From assembly GCA_034429475.1 (NCBI GenBank), contig DAOUGD010000250.1, positions 21,527 through 85,526 on the forward strand: 64,000 nucleotides of DNA. The letters run 5' to 3'. Positions 3,341 to 61,732 of the stretch are shown here, in pieces. A program made the translations under genes and the position numbers. Position 1 is the first letter of the stretch; each line of letters begins with the position of its first letter. The notes beneath the pieces are model-generated. The model had not been told where the DNA came from. It saw nothing but the letters and a program-made list of their open reading frames with translations, and searched no databases. This DNA is from Anaerolineae bacterium (GTDB taxonomy: Bacteria > Chloroflexota > Anaerolineae > B4-G1 > SLSP01).

Positions 3341-3590
3341 ATGGCGATTCAGTTTATTTTAAGCGACTATGTAGCGGAAGCTCTTGCGTTGGCCACTTAC
3401 GATAAATTAGAAGATGACACTTACGCAGGTAAGATTCCTGAATGTGTAGGAGTCGTGGCTTTCGGGGCGACTTTACGTGAATGTGAAAACAACCTGCGCT
3501 CAACACTGGAGGATTGGATTTGGTTGGGGTTAAAATTATCCCATCCGTTGCCCATCATTGCTGACATCAATTTAAATCGAGAGCCAGTCT

Positions 3591-3613
<23 letters not shown>
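3341..3613 (+). CDS. hicB: HicB-family antitoxin (UPF0150)
   Basis: Small protein with a HicB-like fold signature and about 45% GC, below the genome average. It overlaps the downstream hicA-like gene. Confidence 0.65.
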
Positions 3614-5115
<1,502 letters not shown>

Positions 5116-16570: not shown

Positions 16571-19045
16571 ATGAGCAATCCATTGACACTTTGGTATACC
16601 CATCCCGCCGTCCATTGGACGGAAGCCTTGCCCATCGGCAACGGGCGGCTGGGCGCGATGGTGTTCGGCGGCGCGCCCGTCGAGCGGCTGCAATTGAACG
16701 AGGACACGCTCTGGTCGGGCCATCCGAAGGATTGCGATAACCCGGACGCGCTGCCGTATCTGCCGCAGGTGCGGGAGGCGGTCTTTGCCGGGGATTACGT
16801 CCGCGCCGACGAACTGATAAAACACATGCAGGGGCCGTTCAACCAGAGCTATCTGCCGCTTGGGGACTTGATCCTGGATTTCTCAACGGATTTAACGGAT
16901 GGAACGGATTCTGATCCGTTAAATCCGTTGAATCCGTTGAGCTATCGCCGCTCTCTGGATTTGGACACGGCGTTGGCGGAGACGACGTACACGGTGGATG
17001 GCGTCACCTTCACGCGGCAGGTTTTCGCTTCCGCGCCGGACGACGCCATCGTGATACGGCTGGCGTGCGACAAACCGGGCGCGTTGGCCTTCACCGTCGC
17101 CTTGAACAGCCCGCTGCATTTCCACACGACGCCTTTGCCCTCCGGGGCAGCCGCCCAACCGGGTCTGCTGATGACCGGCAAAGCGCCGCAGCACGTAGAC
17201 CCCAGCTACTTGCCGTCTGACAATCCGGTGATCTATGGGTCAACGGATTCAACGGATGGAACGGAACAGAATCCGTTAAAATCCGTTCAATCCGTTGAGG
17301 GAATGACGTTTGCCGCTTTGCTGTCGGCACGTGTGACGGGCGGCGTGGTGACATCGGAGGGCGACCGGCTGCGTGTCGCCGGTGCGGATGAGGCGGTACT
17401 GCTGTTGTGCATGGCGACGAGCTTCAATGGCTTTGACCACTCCCCCGCTTTTGAAGGCAAAGACCCGGTGACGTGCGTCGCCCACACGATGGCGGCGATT
17501 CTCGACAAGCCTTACGCCATGCTGCTACAAGCGCACCTCGATGATTACCAGCCGCTTTTCCGCCGCGTGGAATTGGACCTGGGTTCGCTCGGCAACGAGG
17601 GCTTGCCCACCGACGAGCGCATCCGGCAGTACCACGCCGCTCCCGACCCGGCGCTGGCGAGCCTGCTCTTCCAGTACGGGCGCTACCTGCTCATCGCCAG
17701 CTCCCGGCCGGGGACGCAGCCCGCCAATTTGCAGGGGATTTGGAACGACATGGTGCGCCCGCCGTGGAGCAGCAATTGGACAGTCAACATCAACACGCAG
17801 ATGAACTACTGGCCCGCCGAGGTCGCGAATCTGGTGGATTGTCACCTGCCGCTGTTCGACCTCATCCGCGCCCTGAGCGTCAACGGCGCGAAGACGGCGC
17901 GGATCAACTACGGCTGCCGGGGCTGGTGCAGCCATCACAACGCCGACGTGTGGGCGCAGTCCGCGCCGGTGGGGAACTACGGCGGCGGGCAGCCGATGTG
18001 GGCCAACTTCCCCTTGAGTGGCGCGTGGTTGTGTACGCACCTGTGGGAGCATTACGCCTTCGGCGGCGACGCGGCCTTCCTGCGCGACGTGGCCTATCCG
18101 CTGATGCAAGGCGCGGCGGAGTTCTGCCTGGACTGGCTGATTGAGGACGGCGCAGGCCATCTGGTCACGTGCCCGGCGATCTCCTGCGAGAACGAATTCG
18201 TCACCGAAGACGGCGTGACGGCGCAGACGAGTATGGCGACGACGCAGGATATGGCGATCATCGGGCAGCACCTCGCCAACTGCCTCGCCGCCGCCGGGGT
18301 GTTGGGGATTGAGGACGAGTTCACCGCGCGCGCACGCGCCGCGCTGCCGCGCCTCTACCCTTTCCAGGTGGGGCGCAAGGGCGACTTGCAGGAGTGGGCC
18401 AGGGATTGGGACAGCGCCGACCCGCACCACCGGCACATCTCGCACCTGATGGGGCTGCACCCCTTCGCGCTGATCACCGAGGGGACGCCCGCGCTGTTTG
18501 AGGCGTGCAAACGCTCGCTCGACCTGCGCGGCGACGAGAGCACGGGCTGGTCTATGGCGTGGAAGGTCAACTGCTGGGCGCGGCTCAAGGACGGCGACCG
18601 CGCGTTCAAAGTGCTGTCGCAGCTCTTCACGCCGGTGGACGCCAGCGAGGGGAACTGGCAGCGGGGCGGCGTCTATCCCAACCTGTTCGACGCGCACCCG
18701 CCCTTCCAGATTGACGGCAACTTCGGCGCGACGGCCGGCATCGCGGAGATGTTGGTGCAGAGTCACACGGGCGTCATCGAGCTACTGCCCGCGCTGCCCT
18801 CGGCCTGGCCGAACGGGAGTGTGAAGGGGTTGCGCGCGCGGGGCGGGTTTGAGGTGGACCTGGCGTGGCGGGATGGGAAGGCGACGGAGGCGACGATACG
18901 CTCGTTGTTGGGGAAGGAGTGCCGGGTAGCGGGGGGTAAGCTCAGCATCATCTGTGATGGGAAACAGGTTTTGATACAGCAGGATGGAAATGGCGGCGCA
19001 TTTTCCACCGAGGCAGGGAAAGTCTATCACGTAGCAGTGGGATAA
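16571..19045 (+). CDS. glycoside hydrolase family 95 (alpha-L-fucosidase-like) containing two in-frame repeat-element insertions
   Basis: GH95 N-terminal motifs [20 protein letters not shown] and LPLGDL. Family-A elements at 16881..16942 and 17240..17299 are translated in frame. Confidence 0.9.
16881..16942. repeat. family-A hairpin element embedded in frame in the GH95 CDS
   Basis: tctcaacggatttaacggatggaacggattctgatccgttaaatccgttgaatccgttgagc, encoding [20 protein letters not shown]. Confidence 0.85.
17240..17299. repeat. family-A hairpin element embedded in frame in the GH95 CDS
   Basis: gtcaacggattcaacggatggaacggaacagaatccgttaaaatccgttcaatccgttgag, encoding [20 protein letters not shown]. 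Confidence 0.85.
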
Positions 19046-19100
19046 AGTATAATGAGAGCAGGCTTGAAAGTACAGAGCAATCTCTCACAGGAGGTCAGAT

Positions 19101-19454
19101 ATGAGTGAGTATGTGGTCACACTTTCACCCCAAACGCATCAGACGTTAGCGCAACTGGCGCAAATGACGCAGCAGACCATCGAACGCCTCATCAACGAGT
19201 TGGCGGCGCAGCCGATGCTCTCTATCGAATTGCGCGCTGGCGTGCAGGGCGGCGAGCCTTGTATCCGTGGGACGCGCATCCCTGTGTGGGTATTGGCGGC
19301 CATGCACAAACAGGGCGATACCGCCGAGGATTTGTTGGAAGCTTACCCGAATCTGAACGCCGTACAAGTCTATGCCGCGTTGAGTTATTACTATGCCCAT
19401 CGCGCCGAGATAGACGCGGTGATTGCGGTACAAAATGACCAGATGGAGAAATAA
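19101..19454 (+). CDS. DUF433 domain protein
   Basis: C-terminal GGEPCIRGTRIPV signature of DUF433. Stop is 2 nt before the next ATG. Confidence 0.7.
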   Translation: MSEYVVTLSPQTHQTLAQLAQMTQQTIERLINELAAQPMLSIELRAGVQGGEPCIRGTRIPVWVLAAMHKQGDTAEDLLEAYPNLNAVQVYAALSYYYAHRAEIDAVIAVQNDQMEK

Positions 19455-19456
19455 AA

Positions 19457-20407
19457 ATGAATCCCAAGATTTTTAGCCAGCATTCAGGTTGTGAACCCAA
19501 TTGGTCTCCAGTGCGGGATAAGATTGTTTTTAGTGATCATAAGGACTATTCTATTTATGTGTTAGATATAGATAGTAATGATACCAAAAAGGTTGCGCAA
19601 GGAATGAATCCGCAGTGGTCTCCAAATGGTTCATTTATTTATTATCAATGGGGGACACAAGTTGGCAGGGTGAAACTTGATGATAATACAAATGAAATCT
19701 TATATGATGGTGACGACAATATTCACTGGGTATCGTTGTCAAGGAAAGGAGAAAAAATCGCATTTACCGACGGTTTAAACCCAGGGAAATTATACGTCAT
19801 TGATATAAATAGTTCAAATTTGATGTGTTTAATGGGTGCTGAAAGCCAATGTGATTTTCTGGGAGGGATAACTTGGTCGCCTGATGGTGAGTGGTTAGCT
19901 TGTCAGGTTAGTCAAGCACACTCAACAAGTAATATAGTTCTTCTTAATGTAAGAACCTTAGAGAAAAAAATAATCTTCGAGAGAGGCTATCAGCCAGCTT
20001 GGAGTCCTGTTGGCAATATGATAGTTTTTCGTGCTCGCTCAGGTAATTTAGGATCGGATGATATTTATCTATATGATTTTATAACTCATAAATTCACTAT
20101 TACTGGACTCAAACAGTCGTTGATACGTATTGAGCATGTCCGGGATACTTTCAAATGGTCACCTGATGGAAAATATACTGTTTTTGAAAGAATAGAAGCT
20201 GGCGGTCGGCTAAACTACTGGATGAAAGGATTGTCACATACAATCTGCTTGTTAAGATTGACAGATCGAAAAATAATACCTTTATTTAAAGGCCGTCAAG
20301 ACGCGCTTTCATCGCCAACTTGGTCGCCAGATAGTAGGAAAGTCGCTATGTGCCTGCACCTTAGTGATATTGGTTTTCCTCTTTGCATAATTGATTTACC
20401 AGAGTAA
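19457..20407 (+). CDS. PD40/TolB-like WD40-type beta-propeller protein on a very AT-rich gene (about 38% GC)
   Basis: Recurrent WSPDG / WSPNG / WSPVG PD40 repeats. Sharp GC drop relative to flanking genes. Confidence 0.7.
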   Translation: MNPKIFSQHSGCEPNWSPVRDKIVFSDHKDYSIYVLDIDSNDTKKVAQGMNPQWSPNGSFIYYQWGTQVGRVKLDDNTNEILYDGDDNIHWVSLSRKGEKIAFTDGLNPGKLYVIDINSSNLMCLMGAESQCDFLGGITWSPDGEWLACQVSQAHSTSNIVLLNVRTLEKKIIFERGYQPAWSPVGNMIVFRARSGNLGSDDIYLYDFITHKFTITGLKQSLIRIEHVRDTFKWSPDGKYTVFERIEAGGRLNYWMKGLSHTICLLRLTDRKIIPLFKGRQDALSSPTWSPDSRKVAMCLHLSDIGFPLCIIDLPE

Positions 20408-20511
20408 GAACGAACCACCGCATTATCGGCGACAAAGCGGCTTCGCAGTCACCCGAACACAGCTCGCAATTAAAAAGCTGGAACTCTTTCTAACACAATA
20501 GAGCCTACCCA

Positions 20512-21036
20512 ATGTCCGACATGCTCGTCAAATTATACAACCTCCCACCCCTCCAACCCGCCCTGGATGCGATTGCCCCCATGCACATCCAGATCCGCCC
20601 GGCGCGCGTCGGGGAAGAAACTCAGATTATGCCGTGGATCGCACAGCATTTCAATCCGGGATGGGAGAATGGCGTGGTCTACGCGATCCATCGCAGCCCT
20701 TGCTCGCTGTTTATCGCCATTGAGAAACAGCCGCCTGACCCGGTGCGCGCCGATCCCTACGGCCTGCCGCCGGAAAAGCTGGTGGGGTTTGCGTGCTATG
20801 ATTCGTCCAATCGCGGGATGTTCGGCCCGATGGGGGTCCACCCACGCTATGAAGGTCGGGGCATCGGCACGGCGTTACTGCTGACGGCGCTCCACGCGAT
20901 GTGGAATGAGAACTATGCCTACGCCGTCATCGGCTGGGCCGGCCCGGTGGACTGGTACGCCAGCCGGGTGGGTGCGACGCTCATTCCCGACTCGGAGCCT
21001 GGGCCGTTCCGGGGACGGCTTGAGGGCTGTATATAA
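20512..21036 (+). CDS. GNAT-family N-acetyltransferase
   Basis: Acetyl-CoA-binding motif RGIGTALL. Confidence 0.7.
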   Translation: MSDMLVKLYNLPPLQPALDAIAPMHIQIRPARVGEETQIMPWIAQHFNPGWENGVVYAIHRSPCSLFIAIEKQPPDPVRADPYGLPPEKLVGFACYDSSNRGMFGPMGVHPRYEGRGIGTALLLTALHAMWNENYAYAVIGWAGPVDWYASRVGATLIPDSEPGPFRGRLEGCI

Positions 21037-21046
21037 TTCAAATGAG

Positions 21047-21098
21047 TTTCACGTAGTGCGTAGTCCGTTTACGGAATACGGAATACGCACTACGGACT
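21047..21098. repeat. heptamer tandem repeat array (NNTACGG units)
   Basis: TAGTGCG TAGTCCG TTTACGG AATACGG AATACGC ACTACGG, immediately upstream of the RBS of the next gene. Confidence 0.7.
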
Positions 21099-22287: not shown

Positions 22288-22317
22288 AAATAGCGGATCA
22301 TGAGAAAGGAGATTGAA

Positions 22318-22569
22318 ATGCCTGTGACAAAGGAAGGGGCCATGATCAGACAGTTTAAAATTATTGTAGAGAAACATCCTGATGGATACGTGGCTTATCC
22401 CCTTGGATTGAATGGCGTGGTTGTCGGTGAGGGGGACACTTACGAAGAAGCGTTAATGGACGTTAAATCGGCGATTGCGTTTCACATTGAAACGTTTGGA
22501 CCAGAAGACCTTGAAACTGCCACGCCCGTTTTGGAGGCCTTTGTCGCCGAGGCTGGAGTAGCGTTCTAA
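22318..22569 (+). CDS. hicB: HicB-family antitoxin
   Basis: UPF0150-like sequence. RBS AAAGGAG upstream of the ATG at 22318. About 46% GC. Confidence 0.65.
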   Translation: MPVTKEGAMIRQFKIIVEKHPDGYVAYPLGLNGVVVGEGDTYEEALMDVKSAIAFHIETFGPEDLETATPVLEAFVAEAGVAF

Positions 22570-22808
22570 TGCCCAAATTCCCTGTAGACGCGCCCATCAA
22601 AAGAGTGATCCAGACCCTTGAACAACTAGGGTTTCATGTGGTACGAGAAGGCAATCACATTGCTATGGTGCGCGAAAATGTTGATGGCACACGGACGCCC
22701 TTGACAATGCCTAATCATACGCGAATTAAAGGTTCAACCTTGCGAACAATTCTCACTCAGTCCGGTATATCCAGAGATGAGTTCTTGGATGCTTATGAAG
22801 GACACTGA
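22569..22808 (+). CDS. hicA: HicA-family toxin
   Basis: KGSTLRTILTQSGI matches the HicA KGSxLxxILKQAGI motif. Start overlaps the hicB stop. Confidence 0.75.
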   Translation: MPKFPVDAPIKRVIQTLEQLGFHVVREGNHIAMVRENVDGTRTPLTMPNHTRIKGSTLRTILTQSGISRDEFLDAYEGH

Positions 22809-50361: not shown

Positions 50362-50703
50362 TTACGCCACCGCAAACCCCGTCAACGGGCGGACATCGGG
50401 CGGCTGGAAGGCCAGCACAATATCCTCTTTGGGGATGCCGGCTGCCAGCAGGTCCGGTGTGATGCCGTGTTCCAGCCAATCCTCTTCAATCCACAACTTG
50501 TCATCCCGCAACCGAACATACACCGTTGTGCCGCGAATTCGCCGCTGTTGGTCCCAGCCGGTCGAAACCAACATATAGTGGTCATGCTCCGTGTCGGCGA
50601 CCACTTCGGTTTCCTTGCCCGGCCTAGCAGAACGGTTAATCACGTCGGCGTATTGCGTAAGAATTTGCCGGATGATGTGCCGATAATGAGTTAATTTGTC
50701 CAT
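50362..50703 (-). CDS. xisI: XisI-family protein
   Basis: Characteristic XisI sequence, e.g. YRHIIRQILTQYA and HYMLVSTGWD. Confidence 0.8.
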   Translation of the reverse strand: MDKLTHYRHIIRQILTQYADVINRSARPGKETEVVADTEHDHYMLVSTGWDQQRRIRGTTVYVRLRDDKLWIEEDWLEHGITPDLLAAGIPKEDIVLAFQPPDVRPLTGFAVA

Positions 50704-51107
50704 ACAACCACCTCCTCTTGCGCCAGATTAACCACAATTAAGGCCATCTTATTCCGTTGCACCAGCAATTGAATAGCTTTGCGGGCGAAGACGTTTTCGT
50801 AGACGGGTAGACTAACCGCCAGATATAAATGGCGATCTGGTTCAACGGCTTCCAACAGGCTTTGATAGAGCACATATTGCCCCAAGGCTTCTTCCATTGC
50901 GTGGATGACCGAAGGCGCTATAAAACTTTTGATTTCCACCGCAATTTTCTGCCCCGCTCGTTCTGCTGCGATCACCCGTTCCGCGCCCAGGTCAACAAAA
51001 ACCGTCGTATCTTCATACTCCAACGTGTAAGGATCGTGGGTGATCGTCCACCCGTCTTTGATCAAAGCATTTCTGACAGCCGTATGAATGATGTCTTTTG
51101 CGGGCAT
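50691..51107 (-). CDS. xisH: XisH-family protein (PD-(D/E)xK nuclease-like)
   Basis: XisH signature MPAKDIIHTAVRNALIKDGWTIT. Overlaps xisI. Confidence 0.8.
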   Translation of the reverse strand: MPAKDIIHTAVRNALIKDGWTITHDPYTLEYEDTTVFVDLGAERVIAAERAGQKIAVEIKSFIAPSVIHAMEEALGQYVLYQSLLEAVEPDRHLYLAVSLPVYENVFARKAIQLLVQRNKMALIVVNLAQEEVVVWTN

Positions 51108-56665: not shown

Positions 56666-56733
56666 CCGAGACTGACACGTAGGGGGATCTGGGCGGGCAA
56701 ACAGGTTCCCGCTCGCCCAGACTTCCCTACCAC

Positions 56734-56810
56734 GGTGATTAGTGATCAGGTATCAGGGATTAGGATAAGCTTCCCTGAGCTGATCCTTGATCCCTTATCA
56801 CTCATCATTG
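56734..56810. repeat. family-G hairpin of TGATNAG-type heptamers
   Basis: gtgattagtgatcaggtatcagggattaggataagc / ttccctgagctgatccttgatcccttatcactcatcattg. Confidence 0.7.
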
Positions 56811-57284
56811 TTAAGACGCGGCCCAACGCTGAAGCGCAAAATTTAAGGTTCGGTCAACGGCTTTTCAACTTTGAAATTTTTCGGATTCAACCAGCCTTTT
56901 GGGGAATTGGAGAATCAAGAATCTAAGGCCAAATCCAAGATTTCCCGGATTGTACCCGGCTTTAAGCAATTCCAGGCTTAAAATTCCCGCTACAAAATGC
57001 TCGAAATCTTGGCAGAAATTCCCTGACACCAGCTTCAATGCTTCCATTTTAATTTTGGGAAATTCCCCGACTGCTTAAAAGGCCCAAATCCAGATTTTCT
57101 GACGAAACTTCTGAAATTCCACGGATTTGGACAGCCTTTGAGAAAATCCAGATTAAACCGCGAAATCAAAAATCCGACCTTAAATTCTCCCAATTTGGCT
57201 TTTTATCCCGCGAATGAAAATGGGAACCTGCTCGTAAGATTCGCAGATAACCGGCTAAAATTAACCACAGGCGAACAACAAAAA

Positions 57285-57322
57285 ACACGCAAACCTCAAG
57301 AGGTCTGCGTGTTTTTATTTGG
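57285..57322. terminator. bidirectional intrinsic terminator at the end of the AT-rich noncoding block
   Basis: A-run, then hairpin cacgcaaacc tcaagag ggtctgcgtg, then TTTTTATTT. Confidence 0.6.
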
Positions 57323-57366
57323 CAATGGCTTCACTGATGAAAGTCAGAACTGGAGGCAAAACCCTC

Positions 57367-57415
57367 TTGACAAAATACTCTTTATGTATTATCATAATGT
57401 CATATTATGACATTA
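57367..57415 (+). promoter_or_regulatory. sigma-70-like promoter (TTGACA - 17 nt - TATCAT) with an overlapping 21-bp perfect palindrome operator
   Basis: TTGACA at 57367..57372, TATCAT at 57390..57395, and the palindrome taatgtcatattatgacatta at 57395..57415. RBS AAGGAG at 57421, ATG at 57433. Confidence 0.55.
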
Positions 57416-57432
57416 TGACTAAGGAGATCAAG

Positions 57433-58728
57433 ATGAAAACAATCCAGCACATTCAACGGGTTTACTATCTGATTTTGTCCCTGTTTTGGTTTGCCGTGGG
57501 ACTACCGATGTCCCTCTCCGTGTTGCTGGCGCAGGCCCGCGGGCTGAGCCTGTTTGAAATCAGCCTGCTGATGGGCGTCTATTCCCTCACCATTGTGCTG
57601 CTGGAAGTGCCGACCGGCGGATTGGCCGACGCCATCGGGCGCAAAAAAGTCACGGTGATGGCCTACATCTGCACGCTGCTAGGCTCGGTCGTCTTTCTGC
57701 ACACCTTCTCTTTCCCCGTCGCGCTGGTCGCATTTATCCTCAACGGCATAGCGCGCGCACTCACGTCCGGGGCATTGGATGCGTGGTTCGTGGACAGCCT
57801 ACACGCCGCCGACCCCCAAGTAGACTTGCAGGCCGCGTTGGCGAAAGCGGGCACATTGACACTGGCTGCGCTTGGAACCGGCGTTCTCCTGGGCAGCGCT
57901 CTGCCGCGTCTTTTCGCAACGTTGCCGCCGGATGGGACGGCCGTACTCACGCCACTATCCATTCCACTGGCGTTGGCGGTCGGTGTCCAGGCCATGCTGC
58001 TGCTACTGACCCTCTTGCTGATCAAGGAAAAACGTCCCACCGGCGCCGCTGCCGGTTGGAAAGAGGGATTCCGCCAGGTGCCGGGCATCATCCGCACCGG
58101 TGTGACCTTGACCCGCCGCAATCCCATCCTGTTGCGCTTGTTGGGGGTCTCCTTCGTCAGCGGCCTCGTCCTCATCAGTTTGGAAGCGCTCTGGCAGCCG
58201 CATTTTGCCGGGCTGTTGGACGGCGCGCAAAACAGCCTGCTCCTAGGACTGGTGATGGGTGGGAACTTTATCGCCGGGATGGTGGGAAACCAACTCGCCA
58301 CACCGTTGAGTCGTTGGCTGCGCGAACGCTATGGGTTGGTCTGCGCTATCTTTCAGGGCTTACGCGGCGTGTTACTCATCGCGCTGGCCTCTCAGACGCA
58401 CGCGCTACCCGCCACCGTGTTCTTCTGGCTGGTCTACCTGAATATGGCCGTAGTCAACTCTCCGCACGCGACGCTGCTCAACCGTGAAATCCCGGCGCAG
58501 CAACGCTCGGCCATGCTCTCCATCGAATCATTGGTCGCCTACCTGGGTAGCATCATCGGCAGCACCGCCCTCGGCTACGTTGCCGAGCGAGTCTCCATCT
58601 CGGCGGCCTGGAGTATCGGCGGGGCCATTTTGGTGGTATCATTGGGGTTGTACGCGCAGATTGATGCAAAACAACCGCATCCTCTCGGCAAGCAGATTCA
58701 GGATGGGGCTTTGAACGTAGACCTGTGA
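57433..58728 (+). CDS. MFS transporter
   Basis: About 12 TM helices. MFS motif GGLADAIGRKK in loop 2-3. Confidence 0.8.
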   Translation: MKTIQHIQRVYYLILSLFWFAVGLPMSLSVLLAQARGLSLFEISLLMGVYSLTIVLLEVPTGGLADAIGRKKVTVMAYICTLLGSVVFLHTFSFPVALVAFILNGIARALTSGALDAWFVDSLHAADPQVDLQAALAKAGTLTLAALGTGVLLGSALPRLFATLPPDGTAVLTPLSIPLALAVGVQAMLLLLTLLLIKEKRPTGAAAGWKEGFRQVPGIIRTGVTLTRRNPILLRLLGVSFVSGLVLISLEALWQPHFAGLLDGAQNSLLLGLVMGGNFIAGMVGNQLATPLSRWLRERYGLVCAIFQGLRGVLLIALASQTHALPATVFFWLVYLNMAVVNSPHATLLNREIPAQQRSAMLSIESLVAYLGSIIGSTALGYVAERVSISAAWSIGGAILVVSLGLYAQIDAKQPHPLGKQIQDGALNVDL

Positions 58729-61203: not shown

Positions 61204-61488
61204 CTACCGGGTCACACTCTGCAATTCTTCTCGTACAACGCGTCGCAATATCACTTCCAAAGGTTCTTGCTTCCTTTGGATATATTCACGGAGAGCATGA
61301 TTGATAAGGGTTTGGTAGTTGCCGCCGCCCATCGCGTCTACTTCATTACGGAACCAGTCCAGTATGTCTGTGTCTAACCGGATGGTAATGCGCGTTTTGC
61401 CTGCGCCAACCGGCTCAATCGCTCCCCGTTTGCCTTTGCTGAAATCGTATTCAGTCGCCATAATTTTCCTCATAAGCTTTTCGTTCAT
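61204..61488 (-). CDS. brnA: BrnA-family antitoxin (ribbon-helix-helix)
   Basis: DFSKGKRG and the C-terminal RHH. The true start may be an internal Met, which would reduce the overlap with brnT. Confidence 0.65.
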   Translation of the reverse strand: MNEKLMRKIMATEYDFSKGKRGAIEPVGAGKTRITIRLDTDILDWFRNEVDAMGGGNYQTLINHALREYIQRKQEPLEVILRRVVREELQSVTR

Positions 61489-61732
61489 GGGATGTAGCTT
61501 TTCTGGCGCTTATCAAACGAATGACATTGCCGCGCCATGTAAAAACTACCACCAGTATTTGACCTAATCCGTCCATCCCAATGGTGATATACCTGTCTTC
61601 ATTTTCGCTATGGTCAGTATCTTCGATAGTAATCGCTGAGTCATCCTGAAAGACGAGCACGGCATCCGCAAACAGAATTTTATGTTTGCGAAGATTGGCT
61701 TGTGCTTTGTCATAATCCCATTGGTAATCCAT
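61451..61732 (-). CDS. brnT: BrnT-family ribonuclease toxin (DUF497)
   Basis: W-D-x-K-x-x-N-x-x-KH motif (WDYDKAQANLRKH) and RxISARKAT near the C-terminus. Confidence 0.75.
   Translation of the reverse strand: MDYQWDYDKAQANLRKHKILFADAVLVFQDDSAITIEDTDHSENEDRYITIGMDGLGQILVVVFTWRGNVIRLISARKATSHERKAYEENYGD

Follow-up and report, generated by a model that had tools for sequence, protein, structure and literature searches.

A DUF433 antitoxin gene followed by a foreign beta-propeller gene: a probably remodelled toxin-antitoxin locus in an Anaerolineae genome

The locus described here raises the question of why a small DUF433 gene is followed, after only two nucleotides, by a beta-propeller gene of very different base composition, and whether the two genes work together. 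It lies in a stretch of 64,000 nucleotides (nt) from an Anaerolineae bacterium (GenBank assembly GCA_034429475.1, contig DAOUGD010000250.1, positions 21,527 to 85,526 of the forward strand), which is called the window below and in whose coordinates all positions are given unless a contig is named. The DUF433 gene (19101-19454, + strand) encodes 117 amino acids (aa) and matches Pfam PF04255 (E=5e-21), and the propeller gene (19457-20407, + strand) encodes 316 aa and matches Pfam PF07676, PD40 (E=7e-15). The DUF433 stop codon TAA (19452-19454) is followed by AA and then by the propeller ATG at 19457, which confirms the 2-nt gap described in an earlier note that was made from the sequence alone. 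That note also suggested a possible toxin-immunity or defence module. We consider it likely that the locus is a remodelled type II toxin-antitoxin (TA) locus, in which the toxin gene was replaced by a foreign propeller gene, and not a new defence system of two genes.

The propeller gene is foreign to the host lineage. Its GC content is 38.1% and its GC at third codon positions (GC3) is 0.31, against a window mean GC of 60.1%. When GC was calculated over sliding intervals of 951 bp (standard deviation 0.05), the minimum of the whole 64 kb began at 19451, and the GC3 of the propeller gene had a z of -5.2 against 18 neighbour genes (GC3 0.77 +/- 0.09). The abrupt GC drop reported in the earlier note is therefore real, this being the lowest-GC stretch of its length in the window, and its estimate of a deficit of roughly 25 points was fair, since the propeller gene is 22 points poorer in GC than the window on average and about 26 points poorer than the GH95 and GNAT genes beside the slot. 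The DUF433 gene is intermediate in composition (55% GC, GC3 0.67), and the 30-nt GC falls from 0.63 to 0.30 across 19400-19440. An open reading frame (ORF) of 316 codons would arise by chance at this base composition with a probability of about 5e-11. Moreover, the junction between the two genes is the same, with 0 mismatches, in ten contigs, including an NCBI metagenome-assembled genome (MAG) contig and separate Logan assemblies. An assembly artefact is excluded by GCA_964465495.1 (a 119.7 kb contig) and the Logan runs SRR8165485 and SRR8165484, all of which agree with the window at every position across the junction. The extreme composition, together with the absence of the gene from the corresponding slot of two relatives (L133 and L004), upholds the horizontal acquisition that had been proposed. 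The elements of the slot to which the comparisons refer are as follows.

16571-19045, + strand: GH95 glycoside hydrolase gene (Pfam GH95, E=4e-176), left flank of the variable slot.
19047-19053, + strand: GTATAAT, a -10-like box and putative promoter element, located by the alignments just after the GH95 stop codon.
19089-19094, + strand: AGGAGG, Shine-Dalgarno motif of the DUF433 gene, read from the sequence 6 nt before its ATG and kept in L133.
19442-20407, + strand: foreign low-GC segment, with its left breakpoint at about 19437-19442 and its right end between 20408 and about 20505.
19445-19449, + strand: GGAGA, Shine-Dalgarno motif of the propeller gene, read from the sequence inside the DUF433 3' end, 7 nt before the propeller ATG.
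20408-20511, + strand: spacer of uncertain origin (104 nt, 50% GC) between the propeller and GNAT genes.
20512-21036, + strand: GNAT acetyltransferase gene (Pfam), right flank of the slot, 91% aa identity to L004.

The breakpoint can be located by comparison with L133, a 501-nt contig that carries the closest homolog of the DUF433 protein (P0121, 92% aa and 85% nt identity). The two sequences align from the last codons of GH95 (GKIYHVKGS* in L133, GKVYHVAVG* in the window) through GTATAAT and AGGAGG and along the DUF433 gene. L133 retains a DUF433 protein of 123 aa with the canonical tail (..AAQNVHHRQFQGEGE), which is followed by the overlapping start of a DUF5615 gene (ATGA; MNISKLFAGIY; compare MNDKLFAGIYVDADL in L041). 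The window parts from L133, and likewise from every other homolog, after ..GTACAAAATGACCA, at about 19441; at the DNA level its homology to L133, L132, L041, L050 and L047 ends at about 19437-19442, and in the protein alignment the tail DQMEK stands in place of the canonical QNxHHxxxxx tail. Since the L133 slot keeps the DUF433-DUF5615 arrangement and the window ceases to match it at about 19441, foreign DNA appears to have taken the place of the toxin gene and of the last ~10 codons of the antitoxin. The ancestral part of the DUF433 gene extends over codons 1-113; its last 4-5 codons (DQMEK) and its stop belong to the incoming DNA, as does the propeller Shine-Dalgarno motif. The propeller leader in the window, ATGGAGAAATAAAAATG, resembles the leaders of other members of its family, for example AAGGAGATAAAGCATG in L135. 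These alignments mark the junction as a scar left by recombination within the 3' end of the antitoxin gene.

The usual partners of DUF433 genes were surveyed in other loci. The close homologs of the DUF433 protein in the window (60-92% identity) are 120-124 aa long, and in L041, L047 and L050 the DUF433 gene is followed, with a 4-nt ATGA overlap, by a PIN-like gene of the DUF5615 family (PF18480). From 93 DUF433 loci in metagenomes, 64 distinct downstream ORFs were obtained. DUF5615 accounted for 48 of them, usually with the 4-nt overlap, PIN_10 matches were found in 15 and Mut7-C matches in 13, while none of the 64 was a PD40 or other propeller protein; the earlier remark that the propeller is an unusual partner for DUF433 is thus well founded. 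From these neighbourhoods, the close homologs can be assigned as antitoxins of VapBC-like modules. In the literature, COG2442(DUF433)-PIN is a working VapBC-type TA pair, in which VapC10 is neutralised by VapB10, a protein degraded by ClpXP that also binds its own promoter and activates it, and PIN_10/Mut7-C toxins are described as partners of DUF433 (PMC5499597). The locus in the window resembles such COG2442(DUF433)-PIN(DUF5615/COG4634/PIN_10) modules, for example VapBC10 of Synechocystis (ssr2962/slr1767) and VapBC45 of M. tuberculosis, in its antitoxin family (PF04255, with 60-92% identity to the DUF433 partners of DUF5615 proteins) and in having the antitoxin gene upstream in a tight bicistron, with a 2-nt gap here and a 4-nt overlap in the canonical pairs, and these modules abound in the host phylum (PMC3834315, PMC5499597). 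However, it has an unrelated beta-propeller in the place of the PIN-like toxin, an antitoxin without its tail, and two genes of discordant composition.

The antitoxin itself is well preserved up to the breakpoint. Its profile matches PDB 2GA1 over residues 14-111 (E=6e-16), so the folded domain is intact, and every invariant residue of the family is present in the core. In the comparison with L133, dN/dS was 0.058 and dS 0.84, which points to strong purifying selection since the two sequences split. The toxin, on the other hand, is gone: in a tblastn search of the window with three DUF5615 proteins, no DUF5615 was found (best E = 0.095, elsewhere). Toxin decay is also indicated in other members of the same DUF433 clade, since L132 (582-779) and L067 (2866-3069) carry DUF5615 genes truncated to 65-67 aa 3' of an intact DUF433 gene. 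In L044 (3001-3645), L045, L046 and L055, the DUF433 protein is shortened to 114 aa (..AQTMH*), the cut falling where it does in the window; the L044-type protein is 73% identical to that of the window, and an unrelated 81-aa ORF without a Pfam match follows 54 nt further on. These loci represent a second, independent loss of DUF5615 at the same junction. In keeping an antitoxin without its cognate toxin, the window resembles such orphan antitoxins and degraded TA loci, as exemplified by these relatives (L132, L067 and L044), but it differs from them in that the toxin position holds an intact and apparently expressible foreign gene, not a pseudogene or a gap.

The slot itself was compared with L004, the closest genome, to which the GH95 protein is 75% identical at the aa level (its C-terminus is recognisable in L133 too). 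An ornithine-carbamoyltransferase-family (OTC) gene 0.7 kb downstream is 88% identical to that of L004, and its best relatives are in Anaerolineae/Chloroflexota MAGs. Between GH95 and GNAT, L004 has a different cassette of 1.5 kb and 44% GC (L004 4818-6308) with a PIN-like 144-aa ORF, an overlapping 82-aa ORF and a 179-aa membrane ORF, and the homology of the two genomes stops just after the shared GTATAAT and resumes at the GNAT start codon. Because the same flanks enclose a different, PIN-type cassette in L004, the slot is a hotspot for TA-type cargo. The GTATAAT after the GH95 stop is common to the three lineages (about 4775-4781 in L004 and 34-40 in L133), with a different cassette behind it in each, and it may serve as a resident -10 element from which any incoming cargo is expressed; no good -35 box was found by eye, and a consensus promoter scan did not report it. 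On the right-hand side, the 104-nt spacer contains no attC-like site, no + strand terminator and no remnant of DUF5615, and it matches neither L004 nor any DUF5615 3' end. No Rfam element, tRNA, flanking direct or inverted repeat or target duplication was found near the propeller gene. An inverted repeat in the DUF433 leader (TGAGAG...CTCTCA) was considered as an operator and set aside, being absent from L133.

The propeller protein has no toxin-like domain. Its AF2 model is a closed seven-bladed propeller (pLDDT 86.9, pTM 0.85), and the seven blades correspond to seven WSPxG-type motifs. The whole length of 316 aa is propeller, with no further Pfam domain; no hydrophobic run of a signal peptide was seen when the N-terminus, MNPKIFSQHSGCEPNWSP, was read by eye. 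Foldseek against the PDB returned generic neighbours only (a prokaryotic WD40 domain, oligogalacturonate lyase, TolB and S9 carboxypeptidase), at E values of ~1e-12 to 1e-13 and with query-normalised TM scores of ~0.6 for the TolB chains and up to 0.77 for others. The likeness to TolB/PD40 propellers lies in the PD40 repeat signature and the beta-propeller fold. TolB is six-bladed. The protein of the window, with seven blades, lacks the TolB N-terminal domain, a signal peptide and the tol-pal context, and an identity as TolB was rejected: it scores 68.6 bits against an equivalog cut-off of 343.15 for TIGR02800, it has no PF04052 (TolB_N) match, and its neighbours are GH95, DUF433, GNAT and OTC. 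It likewise differs from the S9 peptidases in being without a peptidase domain, there being no Peptidase_S9 match and no C-terminal alpha/beta-hydrolase domain after the propeller. Neither protein of the pair matched any PADLOC family. We infer that the propeller is a cytoplasmic binding scaffold and not a toxin matched to DUF433.

Where did such a gene come from? An exhaustive HMMER scan of 1.84 billion representatives recovered a propeller family of about seven stand-alone, seven-bladed members without signal peptides, at 25-37% identity. P0237, P0238, P0260, P0281 and P0295, which are 305-324 aa long and collinear end to end, are 27-35% identical in the family alignment; a profile search added P0385, after which the next scores fall from 346 to 129 bits. 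Other searches were less productive: a word-index homolog search returned the propeller itself and only generic PD40 matches at 22-30% identity, tblastn gave four distant matches in plasmids (DUF5050 and WD40-like proteins) and none in phages, and a scan of viral contigs with the family profile gave only generic matches at 24-36%. The long multi-propeller relatives carry SLH domains and are therefore surface proteins, which give no clue to the function of the propeller. With respect to their contexts, P0237 has 184 nt of non-coding sequence upstream, P0295 lies 3' of an HNH_2 gene and near a parA gene, and none of the family members with visible flanks adjoins a DUF433 gene. DUF433 was present in 0 of 14 propeller loci and a propeller of the family in 0 of 93 DUF433 loci.

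Two of these few relatives suggest a mobile source. P0238 occurs on five contigs of ~1 kb from separate sequencing runs (four shown, L135-L138), and P0260 on a single contig of ~1.2 kb (L139). Both genes are 36-41% GC, with flanks of ~56-57% GC (upstream of P0238 and downstream of P0260). On L135-L138 the end of the upstream flank is the reverse complement of the start of the downstream flank (GTTGGGCGGTT / AACCGCCCAAC in L135), and the same is true of L139 (GTTAGCCCGCT / AGCGGGCTAAC). Integron attC sites have R''/R' core boxes with the consensus RYYYAAC / GTTRRRY, which the boxes of L135 fit exactly and those of L139 at 6/7 positions. L139, whose attC-like flanks are at 1-112 and 1076-1206, also has an imperfect palindrome of ~130 nt with unpaired bases, and in each of the four assemblies shown the P0238 contig breaks off within a repeat, which is expected of cassette arrays. 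Because the genes are bracketed by attC-like inverted repeats, we lean towards reading P0238 and P0260 as integron-type cassettes, and the propeller gene of the window probably came from the same pool. Chloroflexi carry integrons, and cassettes are able to land at secondary sites (PMC4889954). P0238 and P0260 each consist of one ORF with a short leader, enclosed by attC-like repeats and lower in GC than its flanks; the gene of the window is likewise promoterless and dependent on an upstream promoter. It differs from a cassette in that no attC, array or integrase is seen with it and in lying inside a TA operon between housekeeping genes. A pattern-level test found no complementary RYYYAAC...GTTRRRY pair in the window, no attC core motif in 20408-20511 and no significant hairpin.

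Taken together, these comparisons suggest the following history. The ancestral slot between GH95 and GNAT would have held a VapBC-like pair, the last codons of the DUF433 gene overlapping (ATGA) the DUF5615 toxin gene. Recombination, with the left breakpoint at about 19437-19442, would then have exchanged the toxin gene and the last ~10 codons of the antitoxin for AT-rich DNA with a promoterless stand-alone PD40 gene, its own short leader and its Shine-Dalgarno motif, the source probably being a pool of mobile, integron-type gene cassettes. The insertion in the window is not a clean attC event, and the recombination was probably illegitimate rather than integrase-mediated, because only ~15 nt of foreign leader are left and no attC. 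The antitoxin frame would now read 4-5 codons into the foreign leader and stop 2 nt before the propeller ATG, so that a tightly coupled bicistron would have been recreated by accident. DUF433 proteins bind and regulate the antitoxin promoter, as shown for VapB10, and the propeller gene would be transcribed from this promoter and translated by re-initiation or from its own Shine-Dalgarno motif. The translational coupling named in the earlier note is compatible with the 2-nt spacing and the internal Shine-Dalgarno motif. No + strand terminator was predicted after the propeller gene, and therefore GNAT and OTC may be co-transcribed with it. The DUF433 protein would persist as an orphan antitoxin or regulator with an intact DNA-binding core, possibly acting on DUF5615 toxins encoded elsewhere in the genome.

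Several points weigh against this history. Only 28 nt of L133 are left after the DUF433 stop, which puts the ancestral stretch from DUF5615 to GNAT beyond the contig, and the right-hand junction of the foreign segment is undefined between 20408 and about 20505. The use of the antitoxin promoter by the propeller gene and its coupling are inferred. A low GC content (36-41%) seems to be a trait of the whole propeller family, and therefore composition dates the transfer only weakly. Concerning the cassette pool, the attC reading of the homolog flanks was made by inspection and folding, the fold z-score of L139 is unremarkable (-0.68), and no intI or array was seen on the contigs of ~1 kb. In addition, some family members may belong to a two-gene unit of their own with a small upstream partner, because in P0281 (Logan SRR14005100) a 93-aa gene without a Pfam match overlaps the propeller start by 4 nt.

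Among the other explanations, the same acquisition could have left only neutral cargo, with a propeller that is not usefully expressed and is decaying along with the orphan DUF433 gene. The arrangement is known from a single lineage, with no sequence variation among samples by which selection could be gauged, and decay of toxin or antitoxin is common in the DUF433 clade (the DUF5615 remnants of 65-67 aa in L132 and L067, and the 114-aa DUF433 protein in L044). Nevertheless, both ORFs are intact, the propeller keeps seven blades, a confident fold and collinearity with its family, it retains a Shine-Dalgarno motif placed for expression, and the DUF433 core has all the invariant residues of the family, so we regard neutral cargo as unlikely.

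The pair could also be a genuine new module, in which DUF433 would serve as antitoxin, immunity protein or regulator for a PD40 propeller effector in a novel TA or defence system. This was close to the suggestion of the earlier note. TA modules reportedly swap partners, the slot is a TA hotspot, the spacing is 2 nt with a Shine-Dalgarno motif inside the upstream gene, and in the propeller homolog P0281, too, the start is overlapped by a small gene lying upstream. Yet the two families did not co-occur in the 93 DUF433 or the 14 propeller loci, and as far as the data allow the homologs with visible flanks are never linked to DUF433. There is also a 17-point GC difference between the two genes, and the DUF433 protein, 92% identical to an ortholog still carrying DUF5615, shows no sign of adaptation and has lost its C-terminal tail at what looks like a recombination scar. 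The propeller lacks catalytic and toxin-like domains, and neither protein has a PADLOC match. A new module of this kind is therefore quite improbable to us. We give similarly little credence to the proposal that the swap made, or was copied from an unsampled source as, a working module in which DUF433 controls or is controlled by the cytoplasmic propeller. In such a module the propeller might be a non-nuclease toxin or an adaptor presenting DUF433 or other proteins to a protease; if true, this would add a propeller to the TA/defence effectors and would mean that integron cassettes feed new partners into TA operons.

Insertion of a propeller cassette by an integron integrase at a secondary site in the TA operon, with later trimming by deletion, is very improbable. 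Landing at secondary sites is documented, integrons are present in Chloroflexi (PMC4889954) and attC-like repeats flank family members, but in the window the gene is flanked by neither an attC core pair nor a palindrome, its ATG comes after only ~15 nt of foreign leader where L135 and L139 have at least 46 nt, and no GTT-type junction or target duplication was found. An assembly chimera of a high-GC genome and a low-GC contaminant, to which the switch in composition within a few bases might point, can practically be dismissed in view of the identical junction in ten contigs and the high-GC syntenic genes on both sides.

The remodelled TA locus opens no new mechanism and settles no open question. 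If our reading is right, it is a natural case, resolved to the base, of a TA operon in which a foreign promoterless gene takes over the expression slot of the toxin and an orphan antitoxin is left. It also draws attention to stand-alone cytoplasmic PD40 propellers, a very rare family whose members apparently travel as mobile cassettes, and to the intergenic slots of this Anaerolineae genome as hotspots for TA-type cargo. Moreover, it calls for caution in annotation by association, for a gene that lies close behind an antitoxin gene and is tightly coupled to it is not for that reason a toxin gene.

Some further features of the region were observed. Between GNAT and OTC, L004 has ~3.1 kb of extra genes (L004 6850-9990) that are absent from the window. 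In the window, the gap between these two genes holds a 17-nt inverted repeat (21052-21094; 94% complementary, 9-nt loop), which could be a terminator or attenuator; a mir-2574 Rfam match at the same position was sub-threshold and spurious. The second-lowest GC patch of the window, at 56681-57601 (mean 45%, minimum 36%), contains only short ORFs without Pfam matches. At 22300-22808, between the OTC and isochorismatase genes, there is a HicA gene (PF07927, E=2e-11) with an overlapping upstream 89-aa ORF in the HicB position (47% GC), which has only a weak DUF5678 match. Because the isochorismatase gene lies 33-48 nt after the OTC match in L004 and L011, this pair is a lineage-specific TA insertion. 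Further TA-type genes lie in low-GC patches, namely UPF0150(HicB-like)/HicA at 3341-3824, XisH at 50691-51107 (- strand) and BrnT/BrnA at 61204-61732 (- strand), and the genome is densely seeded with small mobile TA modules.

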